From: Candidatus Saccharimonadales bacterium
GTDB taxonomy: Bacteria > Patescibacteriota > Saccharimonadia > Saccharimonadales > JAYRRP01
Reading direction: 5' to 3'
NCBI GenBank assembly: GCA_041906765.1
Contig: JAYRIP010000005.1
Location: 1,581 to 65,580, forward strand
Length of the DNA: 64,000 nt
A program made the translations under genes and the position numbers. This document shows, one piece after another, positions 39,797 to 47,963 of this stretch; within the stretch, counting starts at the first letter, position 1, and each line of letters begins with the position of its first letter. The notes under the pieces were generated by a model. The model saw only the letters and a program-made list of their open reading frames with translations. It was not told the DNA's origin and made no database searches.

Positions 39797-40480
39797 ATGG
39801 ATTTTTCACGCAAAAGTAACGCCGGGAGCGGGCTAGAACCGGTAAATAAGCCCGTTCACAGTGTACCTAATATAACCCCCACAAAAGAAACGAAAAGGGC
39901 AAAACGCGAACCTCGCTGGTTACGTTTGACGAGTGTGCTCGAGTTGTTCGCCGCTACTTTATTAATAGTTTCTGTGATTGCCTTTCTAGTAGTCAACGGC
40001 AAAGACCGCAGCGAAGGAAAATATGTAGACAAATCAAAATACCAAGCCGTTTTTATGAACAGAGGAGACGTATATTTTGGCAAGATTACCCAGATGAATA
40101 GTTCATATATCCATCTGCAAGATGTATTTTCACTCAACCAGCCACAAACTGACCAAACTAAAACAGCTACTTCCCAGAAAAGCTATGACCTTATTAGCAT
40201 TACTCGACAGGTCCATTGCCCCACGAGTGAAATGGTCATTTATAAAGATCAAACTAGTTATTGGGAGAATATTCAGCCCGAAGGACAGGTGGTCAAATTA
40301 ATCAACGAATATAAGCAGCAAAACCCCGAGCAGAAATGTATCGAACCATCAGCTGACTCTAGCCAGTCTAATGCTACCCAAAGCAACGCCTCGCCAACAA
40401 CCACGCAGCAAACTACTACTCCCAATACACAAACCAACCAAACGACACCAAAAACCAATTCGAACAGTACGCAGCGCTAA
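39797..40480 (+). CDS. membrane-anchored hypothetical protein with Thr/Gln/Asn-rich C-terminus
   Basis: 227-aa ORF with one TM near residue 50 and a low-complexity tail. Confidence 0.5.
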   Translation: MDFSRKSNAGSGLEPVNKPVHSVPNITPTKETKRAKREPRWLRLTSVLELFAATLLIVSVIAFLVVNGKDRSEGKYVDKSKYQAVFMNRGDVYFGKITQMNSSYIHLQDVFSLNQPQTDQTKTATSQKSYDLISITRQVHCPTSEMVIYKDQTSYWENIQPEGQVVKLINEYKQQNPEQKCIEPSADSSQSNATQSNASPTTTQQTTTPNTQTNQTTPKTNSNSTQR

Positions 40481-41590: not shown

Positions 41591-42883
41591 ATGCATATTT
41601 TCTTCTCCGGCATCGGTGGCACCGCTATTGGTCCCTTAGCTCTTATTGCTCAGCAAGCTGGCTACACTGTTTCTGGTTCTGACAAACAGGACTCTCTTTA
41701 CATTGCATATCTTAAGAAGCGCGGCATAGAGACTATTCATATTGGGCAGGATACGCAGCAGATGGCCTCCGTACATGAAAAAAATCCGATTGATTGGTAC
41801 GTATATTCCTCTGCGGTGGAAAAAGAGAATCCTCACGCGCCAGAGTTACAATTTGTCCGCGATCAAAGGATTAAGATGAGTAAACGAGATGAATTGCTCA
41901 ATCTGATTTTGAAAGATCAAGGTTTGAAGCTTATCGCTGTGGCTGGCACGCATGGCAAAACTACTACCACCGCGATGATCGTTTGGCTTTTTAAGCAACT
42001 TGATCTTCCTCTCTCCTATTCAGTTGGTGCCAAAATAAGCTTTGGTGATATGGGTCACTTTGACCAAAAAAGCCAATATTTCGCTTACGAATGCGATGAG
42101 TTCGACCGCAATTTCTTAGCCTTCACTCCCTATTTAAGCCTCATCAGCGGCGTAAGTTGGGACCATCACGAAATTTTTCCAACTCGCGAAGATTATCAAC
42201 AAGCCTTCAAAGAATTTATCAGCCAAAGCCATCATACAATTGTGTGGCAAGAAGATTTTGATTATTTGAGCCTGGCTGTCCAAAGCAGTTGTACGGTCCT
42301 AGACAGTGGAAACCCGCACATTAACCAACTAAAACTTAAAGGCCAGTACAATCGATTGGATGCCTGGTTGGCCATTCAAGCTTTACACCGTGTCAGTGGT
42401 AAACCAGTTGATAAACTCATCACGCTAATGAATCAATTCCCTGGCCTGCAGCGCCGGATGGAAGCAATTATCCCCAATCTTTATAGTGACTATGCACACA
42501 CTCCAGAGAAAATCCGTGGTGCTATGAGCGTTGCGGTAGAAATGGCAACTGAGCGAGGTCAAAACCTTGTGGTAATTTATGAACCACTCACCAACCGCAG
42601 GCAGCACTATATGATGGACGATTATGGTGATTGTTTTTCAGGAGCTAAGCAAGTCTACTGGATACCAAGCTACCTAGCCCGTGAAGACCCAGCGCAACGT
42701 ATCCTTGCACCTGCAGAACTTATTAGCCACTTGGTAGATCCAAAAATAGCGAAGCCTATGAAGCGAGATGAGAAGCTGAAGGAAATAATCCAAAAACATC
42801 TCAGCGACGGAGATATGGTAGTTGGCATGGCCGGCGGTGGCGGAGACAGTCTAGACGAATGGCTACGTCAAGAATTTGCCTGA
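41591..42883 (+). CDS. Mur ligase family protein, MurC-like (UDP-N-acetylmuramate--L-alanine ligase-like)
   Basis: N-terminal Rossmann motif FSGIGGTAIGPLA, P-loop AVAGTHGKTTTT and ECDEFDRNFL (cf. EADESDGSFL of MurC). It stands apart from any dcw cluster. Confidence 0.7.
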   Translation: MHIFFSGIGGTAIGPLALIAQQAGYTVSGSDKQDSLYIAYLKKRGIETIHIGQDTQQMASVHEKNPIDWYVYSSAVEKENPHAPELQFVRDQRIKMSKRDELLNLILKDQGLKLIAVAGTHGKTTTTAMIVWLFKQLDLPLSYSVGAKISFGDMGHFDQKSQYFAYECDEFDRNFLAFTPYLSLISGVSWDHHEIFPTREDYQQAFKEFISQSHHTIVWQEDFDYLSLAVQSSCTVLDSGNPHINQLKLKGQYNRLDAWLAIQALHRVSGKPVDKLITLMNQFPGLQRRMEAIIPNLYSDYAHTPEKIRGAMSVAVEMATERGQNLVVIYEPLTNRRQHYMMDDYGDCFSGAKQVYWIPSYLAREDPAQRILAPAELISHLVDPKIAKPMKRDEKLKEIIQKHLSDGDMVVGMAGGGGDSLDEWLRQEFA

Positions 42884-42962: not shown

Positions 42963-44342
42963 ATGGAAAGGCGAGCGCCGGCAAAAGTGCAAATACGACG
43001 CCGGATAAATCTTTTACTAATTCTCATTGCAATAGCCGGATTAGTCGGATCTGCCCTTGTGGGCTATATGGTGAATAACCGCAACAAACATTCACTATTG
43101 AAGCGCGCCCAGACAGTAGCCGATGCTTTACCGGCTGAAGAAATACTAGAGCTGAACGGTTCAGAGCAAGATCTGCAGAAACCAGCCTACCAACGCCTTA
43201 AAAGCCGCCTGGAACACATTCGCGCCGACAATAATGACATTCGTTTTGCCTATATTACTGGCCAATCCCAAGAGAACGTATTTTTCTATGCCGACTCAGA
43301 GGATCCTTCAAGTGACGATTATTCCCCACCTGGGCAGACTTACCCCGAAGCATCCGAAAAGTTTATTGCCTCATTTAGTAAAGGTGAGGCGTTCGTGGAA
43401 GGCCCTTACCGCGACCGTTGGGGCACCTGGATTTCTGCTTTGGCACCCATGAAAGATCCAAAAACAAACAAGGTAATTGCAATCGCAGGGATTGATAGCC
43501 CTGCGCAAAATTACTTTCTGCAAATTGGATTTTTAAGTTTGTTCCCCTTATTGTTAGCCGGAATTCCTTTCGTGGTGTTATGGCGGGCACGTGAATTAGA
43601 AAAGCGACAGCGTGAAATATCTGAGCTAAAGACGCATTTTTCTGCCATAATTTCTGACGAACTCAGAACCCCTTTGGGCGGTATTTTATGGGCATCACGA
43701 CAACTTGATAAAGAAGGATCAAAAGAATTTGCACCTCAGCACTTAGAGACCCTTACGCACATCAGCGAAAGTACTGAGTTATGCATTTCTACCCTGAACG
43801 AACTCACCGACAGTTCAATCTTTAATCGGCTACATTCTAGCAAGGACTTTGACACACCTGTCGATATAACCAGCCTCGTGGCCGATGTACAGAATATGTT
43901 GAGGTTAGCGGCGGCCGAAAAAGATATCAGCCTGACACAGACTGGTAGCTGGCCGAAGCAGGCACTTATCCTCGGTGATAAAGCCCTGCTAAAAGAAGCC
44001 CTTATGAGTATTGTGAACAATGCAATCCGTTACAGTTTAGAAAGTGGCGAAGTTACCCTTAATTATTCGCACACCAAATCACAGCACATCATTGGGATAA
44101 GCGATTTTGGCACAGGCATTACTACGGCTGATCAGGCCAAAGTGTTATCTGGCGAGCTTGAATCGACATCTTCGAGTCCGGCCTCCAGTGGCGTAGTAAG
44201 CCTAAGTATCGCAAAACTTATCTTTGAGCGACATAAAGGCAAACTCTGGTTTGAAAACCAGGACAACTACGGCACAGTGGTATTGGTTTCCCTGCCAGTC
44301 AGCACCAAACATCCAAGCTCAATTGAATCGGACAAGTTTTAA
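42963..44342 (+). CDS. sensor histidine kinase-like protein with Asp replacing the phospho-acceptor His (probable pseudokinase)
   Basis: TM, then a Cache/PDC-like ectodomain, then TM, then a HisKA-like helix reading SDELRTPL (GAC at 43656-43658) instead of SHELRTPL. An N-box (NAIRYS) and G1 (SDFGTGI) are present. The G2 lid is degenerate (GVVSLS instead of GxGLGL). Confidence 0.75.
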   Translation: MERRAPAKVQIRRRINLLLILIAIAGLVGSALVGYMVNNRNKHSLLKRAQTVADALPAEEILELNGSEQDLQKPAYQRLKSRLEHIRADNNDIRFAYITGQSQENVFFYADSEDPSSDDYSPPGQTYPEASEKFIASFSKGEAFVEGPYRDRWGTWISALAPMKDPKTNKVIAIAGIDSPAQNYFLQIGFLSLFPLLLAGIPFVVLWRARELEKRQREISELKTHFSAIISDELRTPLGGILWASRQLDKEGSKEFAPQHLETLTHISESTELCISTLNELTDSSIFNRLHSSKDFDTPVDITSLVADVQNMLRLAAAEKDISLTQTGSWPKQALILGDKALLKEALMSIVNNAIRYSLESGEVTLNYSHTKSQHIIGISDFGTGITTADQAKVLSGELESTSSSPASSGVVSLSIAKLIFERHKGKLWFENQDNYGTVVLVSLPVSTKHPSSIESDKF

Positions 44343-44794
44343 TTTAACCGCCACTCTTGCCGTGGCTGCTGTGGAAAGTTTACCTGATCAAATAAAACGA
44401 ATGAGGTAGGTTTAAGCTGATAAAGATGGCGTGGATTCCGACCCGAAATGATGTCTTGTAATTTCGCATGTGCAGTATACCTCTCAGCATAAGCATCAGA
44501 GATGATTTCAAGTTCTTTTGGATCTGTTACCTCTCTAGCCGTTCCAGTTACCTGTACGCCTGCTAAGGTTGTAGTTGCCTTATCCGAAGGTACTACAATG
44601 GCAGCAGACACGTATGGATTGCGTGCAATGTGCTGGGAATGGTGGGTTTGAGGGTGAGACAACCAATATAAATGGTGGAGATTATCATGGGCAAAATACA
44701 CCGTACACGCCCAAGGTCGATTATTATCGCACGTTGCTAATTGCATTAATCGTCCTTTATCCAGATAAGAAATAACTAAATCCTGCACTTTCAT
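44339..44794 (-). CDS. pyridoxamine 5'-phosphate oxidase-like FMN-binding family protein
   Basis: 151 aa with a split-barrel family pattern (LATCDNNRPWACTVYFA...YWLS). The assignment comes from general resemblance only. Confidence 0.55.
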   Translation of the reverse strand: MKVQDLVISYLDKGRLMQLATCDNNRPWACTVYFAHDNLHHLYWLSHPQTHHSQHIARNPYVSAAIVVPSDKATTTLAGVQVTGTAREVTDPKELEIISDAYAERYTAHAKLQDIISGRNPRHLYQLKPTSFVLFDQVNFPQQPRQEWRLN

Positions 44795-46658: not shown

Positions 46659-47222
46659 CTACAGCTGTAGAGCGCTATCTGACAGATCGGTATTGATATC
46701 AGCAGCGCCATCAGCTGCTTTTAAGCTATTATCGACTTCCTGATCTGTTTTTGTCACATCACTGGCGCTTACCTGAGGAGCTGGCTGACTACTGGTAGCT
46801 GACTGAGAAGCATTTTTGGTTGTGCTGGTTTTACCTTTAGAAAGGTAGAGAAAAACAGCGGCACCAATAAGCAGAATGGCTATAAGAGTTATTAGCACCA
46901 CAAGCGCCTTTTTACTTTTATGAGGGGTGGTCGTGGAAGGCACCGGTACATCAACTTGAGGCTCCGATGATTCAGGAGAATGAGTAGCACTTTCTTGATC
47001 TTTCTCATCAGTTTCATCAGGAGTTGTTTTGGCTTCTTTTTCGACAGCAATTTCTGATGTGGAAGGCTCTATCTCTGGTTGAGAGGGTTTGCTGTCAACT
47101 GGCTCATCACCAATCGTTGGTGCTCCTGCCGGCAACTCGTCTACTACCGACGCTGCAGTCGGTTTATCCTCTTTTGTGGCTTTGACGGCTGGCTTTATGT
47201 CATTAAAAATTTTATCATCCAT
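46659..47222 (-). CDS. membrane-anchored acidic low-complexity protein, hypothetical
   Basis: 187 aa with one central TM and Glu/Pro/Ser/Thr-rich flanks. Confidence 0.45.
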   Translation of the reverse strand: MDDKIFNDIKPAVKATKEDKPTAASVVDELPAGAPTIGDEPVDSKPSQPEIEPSTSEIAVEKEAKTTPDETDEKDQESATHSPESSEPQVDVPVPSTTTPHKSKKALVVLITLIAILLIGAAVFLYLSKGKTSTTKNASQSATSSQPAPQVSASDVTKTDQEVDNSLKAADGAADINTDLSDSALQL

Positions 47223-47225
47223 AAT

Positions 47226-47963
47226 TTAGTTTCCTGACGTCGTATTACTTGATGAGTTGTTGCCCTCTAGTTGCTGACGAATAGTCTTTAACGTTGGCTT
47301 GATACTATTTTGCACGTAATTCTTAATATCTAACGCCGCCTGAATGACTGCATCTCGCTTAGTCCGGGCAGTCTCCAAAGCCGCCTTAAAGCCAGCGGGG
47401 TCTGTTTTGCAATCCATTGCCCGAACATCGCTGAGCGCTTGTTGGTAATCAGACTGAGTCGTATTAAAGCTGGCAATTTTTCCGTCGAGCACTGTTTTCT
47501 GCTGGCTCAGAGTGGTCGTATCAATCCCTTTCGTCTTTAATTTTTCAATTAACTTGGAAAGGTGGTCTTGTAATTCGTTATAGGCTTTCACGCGCTTCGG
47601 GACATTGGCTTTCAGTCTGTCCTCACCGAGCTTAACAATGCCCTGGGCACCAATGCACCGGGCTTTCAGGCGGGCTTCCTGCACTGCAGTAAGTTTTATC
47701 TTCAGCTCAGCCTTGTGTTTTTCCACTCTCTCTTTAATTTTCTGCAAATCAACTTCAGGCTCTTTCTTAGGAGTGGTACTAGCAGTGTCACTATTATTAG
47801 AAGAAGTGGTGTCTTCAGCTATTTGTGACCCTTGGGTTGATCCCTCATGAGCCAGTGCTACTGGCGATAAAACGAGCACCGCAAAAATCAAAGCAGCGCT
47901 TATGGTTCGTGCAAAATTTCTCATATTCCTTACGCTTTTATTAAATTCCTTAATAAATCCCAT
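47226..47963 (-). CDS. secreted coiled-coil protein, hypothetical
   Basis: The signal-peptide-like N-terminus ends ...PVALAHEG. The body is helical and Lys/Glu/Gln-rich. Confidence 0.45.
   Translation of the reverse strand: MGFIKEFNKSVRNMRNFARTISAALIFAVLVLSPVALAHEGSTQGSQIAEDTTSSNNSDTASTTPKKEPEVDLQKIKERVEKHKAELKIKLTAVQEARLKARCIGAQGIVKLGEDRLKANVPKRVKAYNELQDHLSKLIEKLKTKGIDTTTLSQQKTVLDGKIASFNTTQSDYQQALSDVRAMDCKTDPAGFKAALETARTKRDAVIQAALDIKNYVQNSIKPTLKTIRQQLEGNNSSSNTTSGN

Follow-up and report, generated by a model that had tools for sequence, protein, structure and literature searches.

The window analysed here is the whole of a 64,000-nucleotide stretch of contig JAYRIP010000005.1 (assembly GCA_041906765.1) from a Candidatus Saccharimonadales bacterium. 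Between a MurC-like Mur ligase gene and a convergent PNPOx-like gene it carries a gene for a 459-residue protein that is built like a sensor histidine kinase and has an Asp at the position of the phospho-acceptor His. The parts of this gene are listed below by window position and strand, with the support for each in brackets; residue numbers are those of the 459-residue protein.

42963..44342, + strand: histidine-kinase-like sensor gene (putative histidine pseudokinase), 459 amino acids, stop codon included (list of open reading frames, ORFs; Pfam HisKA and HATPase_c; AlphaFold2, AF2, model)
43005..43073, + strand: first transmembrane helix (TM1), residues 15-37, INLLLILIAIAGLVGSALVGYMV (sequence; inside a long AF2 helix, 7-55)
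43074..43520, + strand: extracytoplasmic single-Cache/PDC-like sensor domain, residues 38-186 (AF2, Foldseek, conservation)
43515..43583, + strand: second transmembrane helix (TM2), about residues 185-207, running into the DHp helix (sequence; single AF2 helix 181-252)
43587..43835, + strand: dimerization and histidine phosphotransfer (DHp, HisKA) helical hairpin, residues 209-291 (Pfam HisKA 223-281; AF2 helices 181-252 and 258-291)
43635..43637, + strand: codon CAT for His225, seven residues upstream of Asp232 (sequence; family comparison)
43638..43676, + strand: H-box FSAIISDELRTPL, residues 226-238 (sequence, alignments)
43656..43658, + strand: codon GAC for Asp232, at the phospho-acceptor His position (alignment; codon check)
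43836..44303, + strand: catalytic and ATP-binding-like (CA, HATPase_c) domain, residues 292-447 (Pfam HATPase_c 338-447)
44007..44036, + strand: N-box SIVNNAIRYS, residues 349-358 (Asn353 kept; N349S and K356R changed)
44103..44117, + strand: G1 box DFGTG, residues 381-385, intact (alignment)
44151..44207, + strand: degenerate F-box, ATP lid and G2 box GELESTSSSPASSGVVSLS, residues 397-415 (R400E, G409S, G411V, G413S)

The domain order, taken from the sequence and the AF2 model, is TM helix, single-Cache ectodomain, TM helix, HisKA-type DHp and HATPase_c, with no HAMP domain, and the sequence places an Arg/Lys-rich cytoplasmic N-terminus before TM1. The full-length AF2 model was built from 65 relatives and has a predicted local distance difference test score (pLDDT) of 89. 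It consists of TM1, a mixed alpha/beta ectodomain, a continuous TM2-DHp helix, the hairpin and the CA domain, and Foldseek matches it to WalK, YF1, HK853, GacS, RetS and DivL. In Pfam, HATPase_c scores 51.6 bits against a cut-off of 26.4, and HisKA scores 26.1 bits, marginally below its cut-off of 26.9. A scan against NCBIfam returned only generic sensor-kinase similarity, to many models and with every score far below cut-off. The DHp hairpin and the HATPase_c domain that characterize HisKA-type sensor kinases are thus both present. An earlier interpretation made from the letters alone (the sequence-only reading) had proposed this succession of TM helix, Cache/PDC-like ectodomain, TM helix, DHp and catalytic domain, and Pfam, AF2 and Foldseek confirm it.

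Because the ectodomain gave no match to any Cache or CHASE model of Pfam, even at E <= 10, its fold was assigned by structure. Modelled alone it reached a pLDDT of 94, and Foldseek matched it with a probability of 1.00 to Tlp3, KinD, CitA, DcuS and the WalK ectodomain, at TM-scores of up to 0.77. The model predicts a PDC fold (an N-terminal helix, a five-stranded antiparallel sheet and flanking helices) between the two TM helices. All 31 of the 31 conserved ectodomain positions are kept by the window protein, which would predict a ligand in common with the His-bearing relatives. The motif DSE..S.DYSPPGQ.Y.E...DRWG.W of this ectodomain has a very wide distribution. Taken alone, the pattern YSPPGQxYxE was found at no fewer than 595 loci in genomes of Patescibacteria, Proteobacteria, Synergistota, Verrucomicrobiota and methanogenic archaea, where these ectodomains are fused to kinase, PAS, GGDEF/EAL or HD-GYP outputs. 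Since so widespread a motif has no Pfam model, the ectodomain looks like an undescribed sequence family of single-Cache sensors, the ligand of which is probably a common one.

Pairwise alignments with solved kinases place Asp232 opposite the phospho-acceptor His (isDElRTPL in the window protein, msHEiRTPL in GacS and sHELRTPL in VicK and HK853), and apart from the His the H-box is conserved, with E233, R235, T236 and P237 all present. To assess how unusual this residue is we used a family set obtained by searching 1.84 billion cluster representatives, followed by profile alignment. Out of the 217 family members with an aligned H-box, 210 have His in the acceptor column, and because of this the Asp is far beyond chance. 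A homologue search found about 48 full-length relatives, all of them from Patescibacteria and mostly from Saccharibacteria. Among the proteins of the first alignment, Asp occupies the His column only in the window protein and in two others, P0002 (locus L005; 80% identity) and P0003 (locus L007; 47% identity). It is kept in 7 of 7 sequence variants of the P0003 cluster and in 2 of 2 of the P0002 cluster. The Asp codon is GAC in the window, GAC in P0002 and GAT in P0003, and GAC is one nucleotide from the His codon CAC. The gene is identical, with 0 differences over 1380 nucleotides, in contigs from four independent Sequence Read Archive assemblies and sequencing runs (L001-L004). The substitution reported by the sequence-only reading, GAC at 43656-43658, is therefore real and falls on residue 232; the base call that it wished to see checked is the same in four independent assemblies, and the Asp is conserved in syntenic orthologues at 80% and 47% identity.

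A shifted alignment register, in which another His of the DHp domain would be the acceptor, was rejected because the motif S-x-E-L-R-T-P-L fixes the register; Asp232 unambiguously faces the His of the solved kinases. The other DHp histidines downstream, His260 and His266, are not conserved even in P0002. As judged from these alignments, the phospho-acceptor His of a functional HisKA kinase (EC 2.7.13.3) is missing. What remains is a histidine-kinase fold without the acceptor His, as in histidine pseudokinases.

A second residue of the DHp helix sets the Asp-bearing proteins apart. His225 is found in 3 of 3 Asp lineages and in only 2 of the 210 His-bearing relatives, where Glu is usual, and it is invariant within the P0003 cluster. 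His225 and Asp232 lie on the same face of the helix, one heptad (two helical turns) apart, so that the acid and the His seem swapped on one helix face, His225/Asp232 replacing the Glu/His of active relatives. A metal site formed by His225 and His291 was also considered and dropped, the equivalent of His291 being Arg in most members of the P0003 cluster.

Within the same Patescibacteria family the acceptor His has been lost independently at least twice more. P0268 (L091:190-1467) represents a second independent His-to-Asp lineage, with the H-box VTDNVRTPL; its CA domain is so degenerate that Pfam records none. A canonical stand-alone receiver adjoins it in convergent orientation (L091:1468-1869, - strand), the opposite partner status to that of the window clade. 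The third His-less lineage comprises P0213 (L092:6001-7356) and P0219, which have Gln at the His position and at His+1 (AAQQLRTPL). These two proteins are less than 50% identical to each other; they keep G1 and G2 but have a degraded F-box, and the next gene downstream does not encode a receiver. In a metagenome-assembled genome of an alphaproteobacterium, Asn takes the acceptor position (SNEIRAPM) in the product of L068:2748-4085 (+ strand), the second of two tandem kinase genes that share this ectodomain.

The ATP site has changed as well. The G2 box reads GVVSLS in the window protein and GTGLGL in the family, whereas G1 (DFGTG) and the invariant N-box Asn353 are retained. Residues that contact the ATP phosphates are altered by N349S (the first Asn of the N-box), K356R and R400E (the F-box Arg), the G2 box and lid carry G409S, G411V and G413S, and the ATP lid is two residues shorter. 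Of 19 CA positions conserved in the family, the window protein keeps 12; the 7 that differ are changed in P0002 too and all belong to phosphate-contacting elements. P0003 keeps 18 of the 19, its sole change being K356R. Decay of the ATP site is specific to the branch of the window protein and P0002 (the window/JAYRRP branch) and came later than the loss of the His. By sequence, the complete set of ATP-binding motifs (N, G1, F and G2 boxes) is not present in the window protein. The degenerate lid and GVVSLS G2 box described earlier were found as claimed, in an ATP site slightly more degenerate than had been said: the view that the N-box and G1 remain holds for G1 and Asn353 and fails for the two substituted N-box positions.

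The setting of the gene gives a second line of evidence, for which two neighbours are needed.

41591..42883, + strand: MurC-like Mur ligase gene, the conserved left neighbour that defines syntenic orthologues (ORF list, synteny)
44339..44794, - strand: PNPOx-like gene, convergent, its stop overlapping the kinase stop (ORF list, synteny)

The three Asp-bearing genes are positional orthologues, with the MurC-like ligase upstream and a convergent PNPOx-MazG-Sua5 block and MscS downstream. The same position is held by His-bearing relatives of 42-46% identity at L009, L010, L012, L013, L014, L015 and L034. Directly downstream of the kinase gene, a receiver gene is present in all 7 of the 7 His-bearing Mur-syntenic orthologues for which downstream sequence is available. 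In 6 of these 7 it is convergent and encodes a stand-alone receiver of 120-129 residues with the canonical acidic pair (DD), the phospho-acceptor D and the K; the exception, L015, has a co-directional receiver of another subtype. At the locus of the Asp lineages a receiver was found in 0 of 3, and in the window the PNPOx-like gene occupies its place. No cognate response regulator therefore adjoins the gene at the window, L005 or L007 loci. A receiver profile detected no receiver ORF anywhere in the 64-kb window, which bears out and extends the earlier remark that no response regulator is adjacent, and none in the 18-21 kb around P0002 and P0003. In a partial test for a relocated receiver, none of the best 120 matches to a profile of six receivers lay on the 175-kb, 371-kb and 56-kb contigs of the Asp clade. 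Across the wider family an adjacent receiver is absent in 20 of 49 His-bearing members, so that the absence is telling only in combination with synteny.

The Asp-bearing kinases form a monophyletic group in neighbour-joining trees (bootstrap 0.98 in a 32-taxon tree, 1.00 in a 9-taxon tree), and the same three genomes are grouped by the neighbouring genes MscS (0.98) and MazG (1.00). A single His-to-Asp change together with deletion of the receiver gene in a common ancestor is the parsimonious reading of these trees and loci. Of note, the kinase and PNPOx stop codons overlap by 4 bp (44339-44342), and at L009 the stop codon of the receiver gene overlaps that of the kinase likewise by 4 bp. Deletion of the regulator (and, relative to L009, of a glyoxalase gene too) appears to have recreated the same tight convergent junction. 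Counts from a promoter and terminator scan around the kinase gene were not above the shuffled expectation, and for this reason we make no operon claim.

The Mur ligase neighbour scores 212 bits, compared with the NCBIfam MurC cut-off of 335. It is linked to the kinase gene in every syntenic orthologue, with gaps of 0-80 bp, and because of this linkage the locus hints at a cell-wall-related role of the sensor. The products of three further ORFs in the vicinity, at 39797-40480 (+ strand), 46659-47222 (- strand) and 47226-47963 (- strand), each have a single TM or signal-like segment and a long low-complexity tail rich in Ser, Thr, Gln and Pro. They have no domain matches in the orthologous loci and may be surface proteins.

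We then asked how selection acts on the gene. When the window is compared with P0002, all genes of the neighbourhood show saturation at synonymous sites (proportion of synonymous differences, pS, 0.78-0.92). The ratio of nonsynonymous to synonymous substitution rates (dN/dS) of the window against L005 or L007 is uninformative as a ratio because of this saturation. It was replaced by a comparison of the proportion of nonsynonymous differences (pN) and by an unsaturated pair from the P0003 lineage, L007 and L094 (dS 0.06). In the first comparison the pN of the kinase gene, 0.133, matches that of its housekeeping neighbours (0.109-0.150). In the L007/L094 pair, dN/dS is 0.27 over the whole gene (p = 3e-4 against neutrality), 0.05 in the CA domain (p = 8e-6) and 0.27 in the ectodomain; in the DHp domain it is about 1.6, from 5 nonsynonymous and 1 synonymous changes, which is not significant. 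Since pN matches that of the housekeeping neighbours and dN/dS is 0.27, the kinase-like gene is maintained by purifying selection and is not decaying. A substitution conserved in orthologues under purifying selection, as expected of a pseudokinase, is thus in place.

The distribution of constraint along the protein differs from that of its relatives. In 171 pairs of His-bearing proteins the DHp domain is usually the best conserved (median DHp/ectodomain identity ratio 1.16), whereas in pairs from the Asp clade the ectodomain is best conserved, with ratios of 0.68-0.77 (ectodomain identities of 89%, 61% and 57% against DHp identities of 68%, 41% and 41%). Measured against the His-bearing consensus, the window protein has an identity of 0.66 in the ectodomain, at the top of the range, and of 0.46 in DHp and 0.43 in CA, both lower than in every syntenic His-bearing relative. 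Constraint has moved from the DHp/CA core to the ectodomain. Within the DHp domain, E233, R235, T/S236 and P237 are conserved in the Asp clade despite an overall DHp identity of 41%.

In all, the window protein has no canonical acceptor, no neighbouring partner and no intact ATP lid, yet it is under purifying selection, which is strongest on the ectodomain. By descent it belongs to the HisKA sensor-kinase superfamily, and it lacks three features that define an active kinase, namely the phospho-acceptor His, the full set of ATP-site motifs and a cognate receiver. Because the His, the lid and the partner gene are all missing, we infer that it is a lineage-specific histidine pseudokinase that descended from an ordinary HisKA kinase and that probably still senses a ligand and signals by binding a partner. 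We give this interpretation a probability of about 0.6.

The following course of events would account for these features. The starting point would have been a canonical transmembrane single-Cache HisKA kinase that had a stand-alone (CheY-like) receiver as its partner. In the last ancestor shared by a small clade of Candidatus Saccharimonadales, a single-nucleotide change of CAY to GAY would have turned the His into Asp, and the cognate receiver gene would have been deleted in the same ancestor. Later, on the branch of the window protein, decay would have reached the elements that hold the ATP phosphates, namely the glycines of G2, the Arg of the F-box and the first Asn of the N-box. Autophosphorylation would no longer take place. 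The protein would still bind an extracytoplasmic ligand and would convert this signal into a conformational change carried by the TM2-DHp helix. A protein partner would read the change at the DHp/CA surface, as with DivL or RetS. This partner could be a receiver encoded elsewhere, which might be bound or dephosphorylated, since the E-x-x-T phosphatase motif beside residue 232 is intact. Signalling by conformation or partner binding without phosphorylation had been suggested by the sequence-only reading. The suggestion fits the present evidence, although it overlooked His225 as an alternative acceptor, and it is strengthened by two findings, the joint loss of the His and the receiver gene and the shift of selection onto the ectodomain. 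Its proposal that the Asp acts as a constitutive phospho-mimic is so far unsupported, and so is that of a genome with few two-component systems, of which about 64 kb was covered.

Several observations weigh against a pseudokinase that signals by partner binding. Interaction is proposed to take place at the DHp domain, yet no other domain evolves faster within the clade (68% identity for P0001/P0002; 5 nonsynonymous and 1 synonymous changes in the P0003 lineage), and this is unexpected for a conserved binding surface. The CA domain of the P0003 lineage keeps every ATP-binding motif at its dN/dS of 0.05, a constraint which suggests that nucleotide use persisted after the His was lost. An orphan response regulator may be encoded elsewhere, the search having covered 64 kb here and about 20 kb per related genome. 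Finally, the tree of the Mur ligase, which is star-like with very short internal branches, does not recover the Asp clade (bootstrap 0.04). This tree (window, L005, L007, L009-L019 and L034) mildly groups the window lineage with L009, L012 and L015 and not with L007. Its conflict with the kinase, MscS and MazG trees may reflect the short internal branches or recombination.

The main rival explanation is that the protein is a dedicated response-regulator phosphatase. In this case kinase activity would be lost, and the protein would dock a receiver encoded elsewhere and dephosphorylate it under control of the Cache domain, the receiver being phosphorylated by another kinase or by acetyl phosphate. 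Thr or Asn at His+4 is the phosphatase determinant of HisKA kinases (PMC3510030). The E/D-x-x-T/N motif of HisKA phosphatases can be recognized as D232-E233-L-R-T236 in the window protein and as E-L-R-S in P0003, and this His+4 position and the rest of the H-box are conserved in the three Asp lineages. The xRTPL segment is also kept in the two other His-less lineages of the family, and a phosphatase would account for the intact and strongly constrained CA domain of P0003. The His itself is dispensable for phosphatase activity in EnvZ and CrdS, but not in PleC, where its loss abolishes this activity too (PMC3510030). Against a phosphatase stand the disappearance of the cognate receiver from the locus and the lack of any receiver within the 64 kb of the window. 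A partial test placed none of the 120 best receiver homologues on an Asp-clade contig. DHp conservation is moreover relaxed, and the ATP lid is lost in the window protein. We regard a dedicated phosphatase as possible but rather unlikely.

The protein could also still be a kinase, using a non-canonical acceptor (His225, or Asp232 as an acyl phosphate) and working without a conventional adjacent response regulator. The near-exclusive presence of His225 in the Asp lineages and its invariance in the P0003 cluster point in this direction, as do the complete ATP-binding motifs of P0003 and the strong purifying selection on them. However, in the window protein and P0002 the residues that hold the ATP phosphates, the Arg of the F-box and the glycines of G2, are gone. 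His225 is followed by Phe226 and so has no acidic general base, the cognate receiver has disappeared, and position -7 is not a His in the family's other His-less lineages. The sharing of His225 moreover counts as a single evolutionary event in one clade. If such a kinase did exist, its chemistry would have been rewired and not lost, the phospho-acceptor of a histidine-kinase scaffold having moved or changed in chemical nature; we consider it improbable.

A functionless relic, that is an orphaned kinase gene turning into a pseudogene after loss of its response regulator, would explain why DHp evolution is accelerated and why the acceptor His and the lid motifs have gone along with the partner gene. 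The selection data strongly disfavour it. The reading frame is intact in three lineages at saturated synonymous sites, with 80% amino acid identity and a pN like that of housekeeping neighbours. Moreover, dN/dS in the P0003 lineage is well below neutrality (0.27 overall, 0.05 in CA) and no conserved ectodomain position has been lost. A sequencing or assembly error or a private strain mutation, which the single-nucleotide distance between GAC and CAC would allow, is refuted by the identical gene sequence from four sequencing runs, by the differing Asp codons of the 80% and 47% orthologues and by all cluster variants.

If the protein is a histidine pseudokinase, it adds to a group of which few bacterial cases have been studied (DivL, PsmA and RetS-like signalling) and in which the route from kinase to pseudokinase has rarely been traced. 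Here a single syntenic Saccharibacteria gene would provide an ordered series. The first stage would be a canonical kinase with a stand-alone receiver. In the second, represented by the P0003 lineage, the Asp is present, the receiver is lost and the ATP site is intact, and in the third, represented by the window, the ATP lid has decayed too. Through all stages the Cache ectodomain is conserved as much as, or more than, in any active relative. This would imply that the sensor is still of importance to an ultra-small bacterium dependent on a host, with an output that no longer requires phosphotransfer. Repeated loss of the His makes the family a useful system for asking what such proteins do, and the practical value will be modest until a partner or ligand is found.

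Among characterized proteins, one close parallel is DivL of Caulobacter crescentus (PDB 4q20). DivL has Tyr at the His site and neither kinase nor phosphatase activity, and its DHp domain binds DivK~P (PMC4211667). Like the window protein it combines HisKA and HATPase_c with a lineage-conserved non-His residue at the acceptor position of a conserved x-E-L-R-T-P-L motif, and it matches the window protein in sequence and its model in structure. It signals by binding, with the DHp domain as docking site; the same output is only proposed for the window protein. The two are not orthologous, and they differ in that DivL has Tyr, PAS domains and a cytoplasmic, polar location, whereas the window protein has Asp and a transmembrane Cache architecture. 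DivL still has its known partner, DivK; at the window locus the adjacent receiver is gone.

PsmA (SCO4009) of Streptomyces is likewise a family-conserved kinase-like protein without the H-box His. Its His site is occupied by Glu, Asp, Gln, Val or Tyr, and autokinase activity was not detected (PMC12963549). The S. coelicolor orthologue has Asp, as here. In contrast to the transmembrane Cache sensor of the window, PsmA is cytoplasmic and of the hybrid kinase type, containing PAS and receiver domains. Its His-site residue varies between species and its H-box has lost the E/DxxT/N motif, whereas the window clade has an intact motif and a fixed Asp. RetS of Pseudomonas aeruginosa (PDB 6dk7/6dk8), which also matches in sequence and structure, is a sensor of the membrane that binds ligand through a periplasmic domain. 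Instead of carrying out phosphotransfer itself, its kinase core signals by binding another kinase, GacS. Unlike the window protein it retains the His and carries receiver domains; a second kinase is not seen in the window.

The canonical single-Cache sensor kinases CitA and DcuS have the same layout of TM helix, sCache, TM helix, DHp and CA, with ectodomain TM-scores of up to 0.77, and the His-bearing Patescibacteria orthologues (P0004, P0011 and others) are ordinary kinase-receiver pairs. The window protein differs from both groups in having neither the acceptor His nor the partner receiver, and in the loss of the G2 box and of the Arg of the F-box. From DivL, PsmA and RetS it is set apart as a transmembrane single-Cache protein with a clade-fixed Asp and a lost receiver partner.

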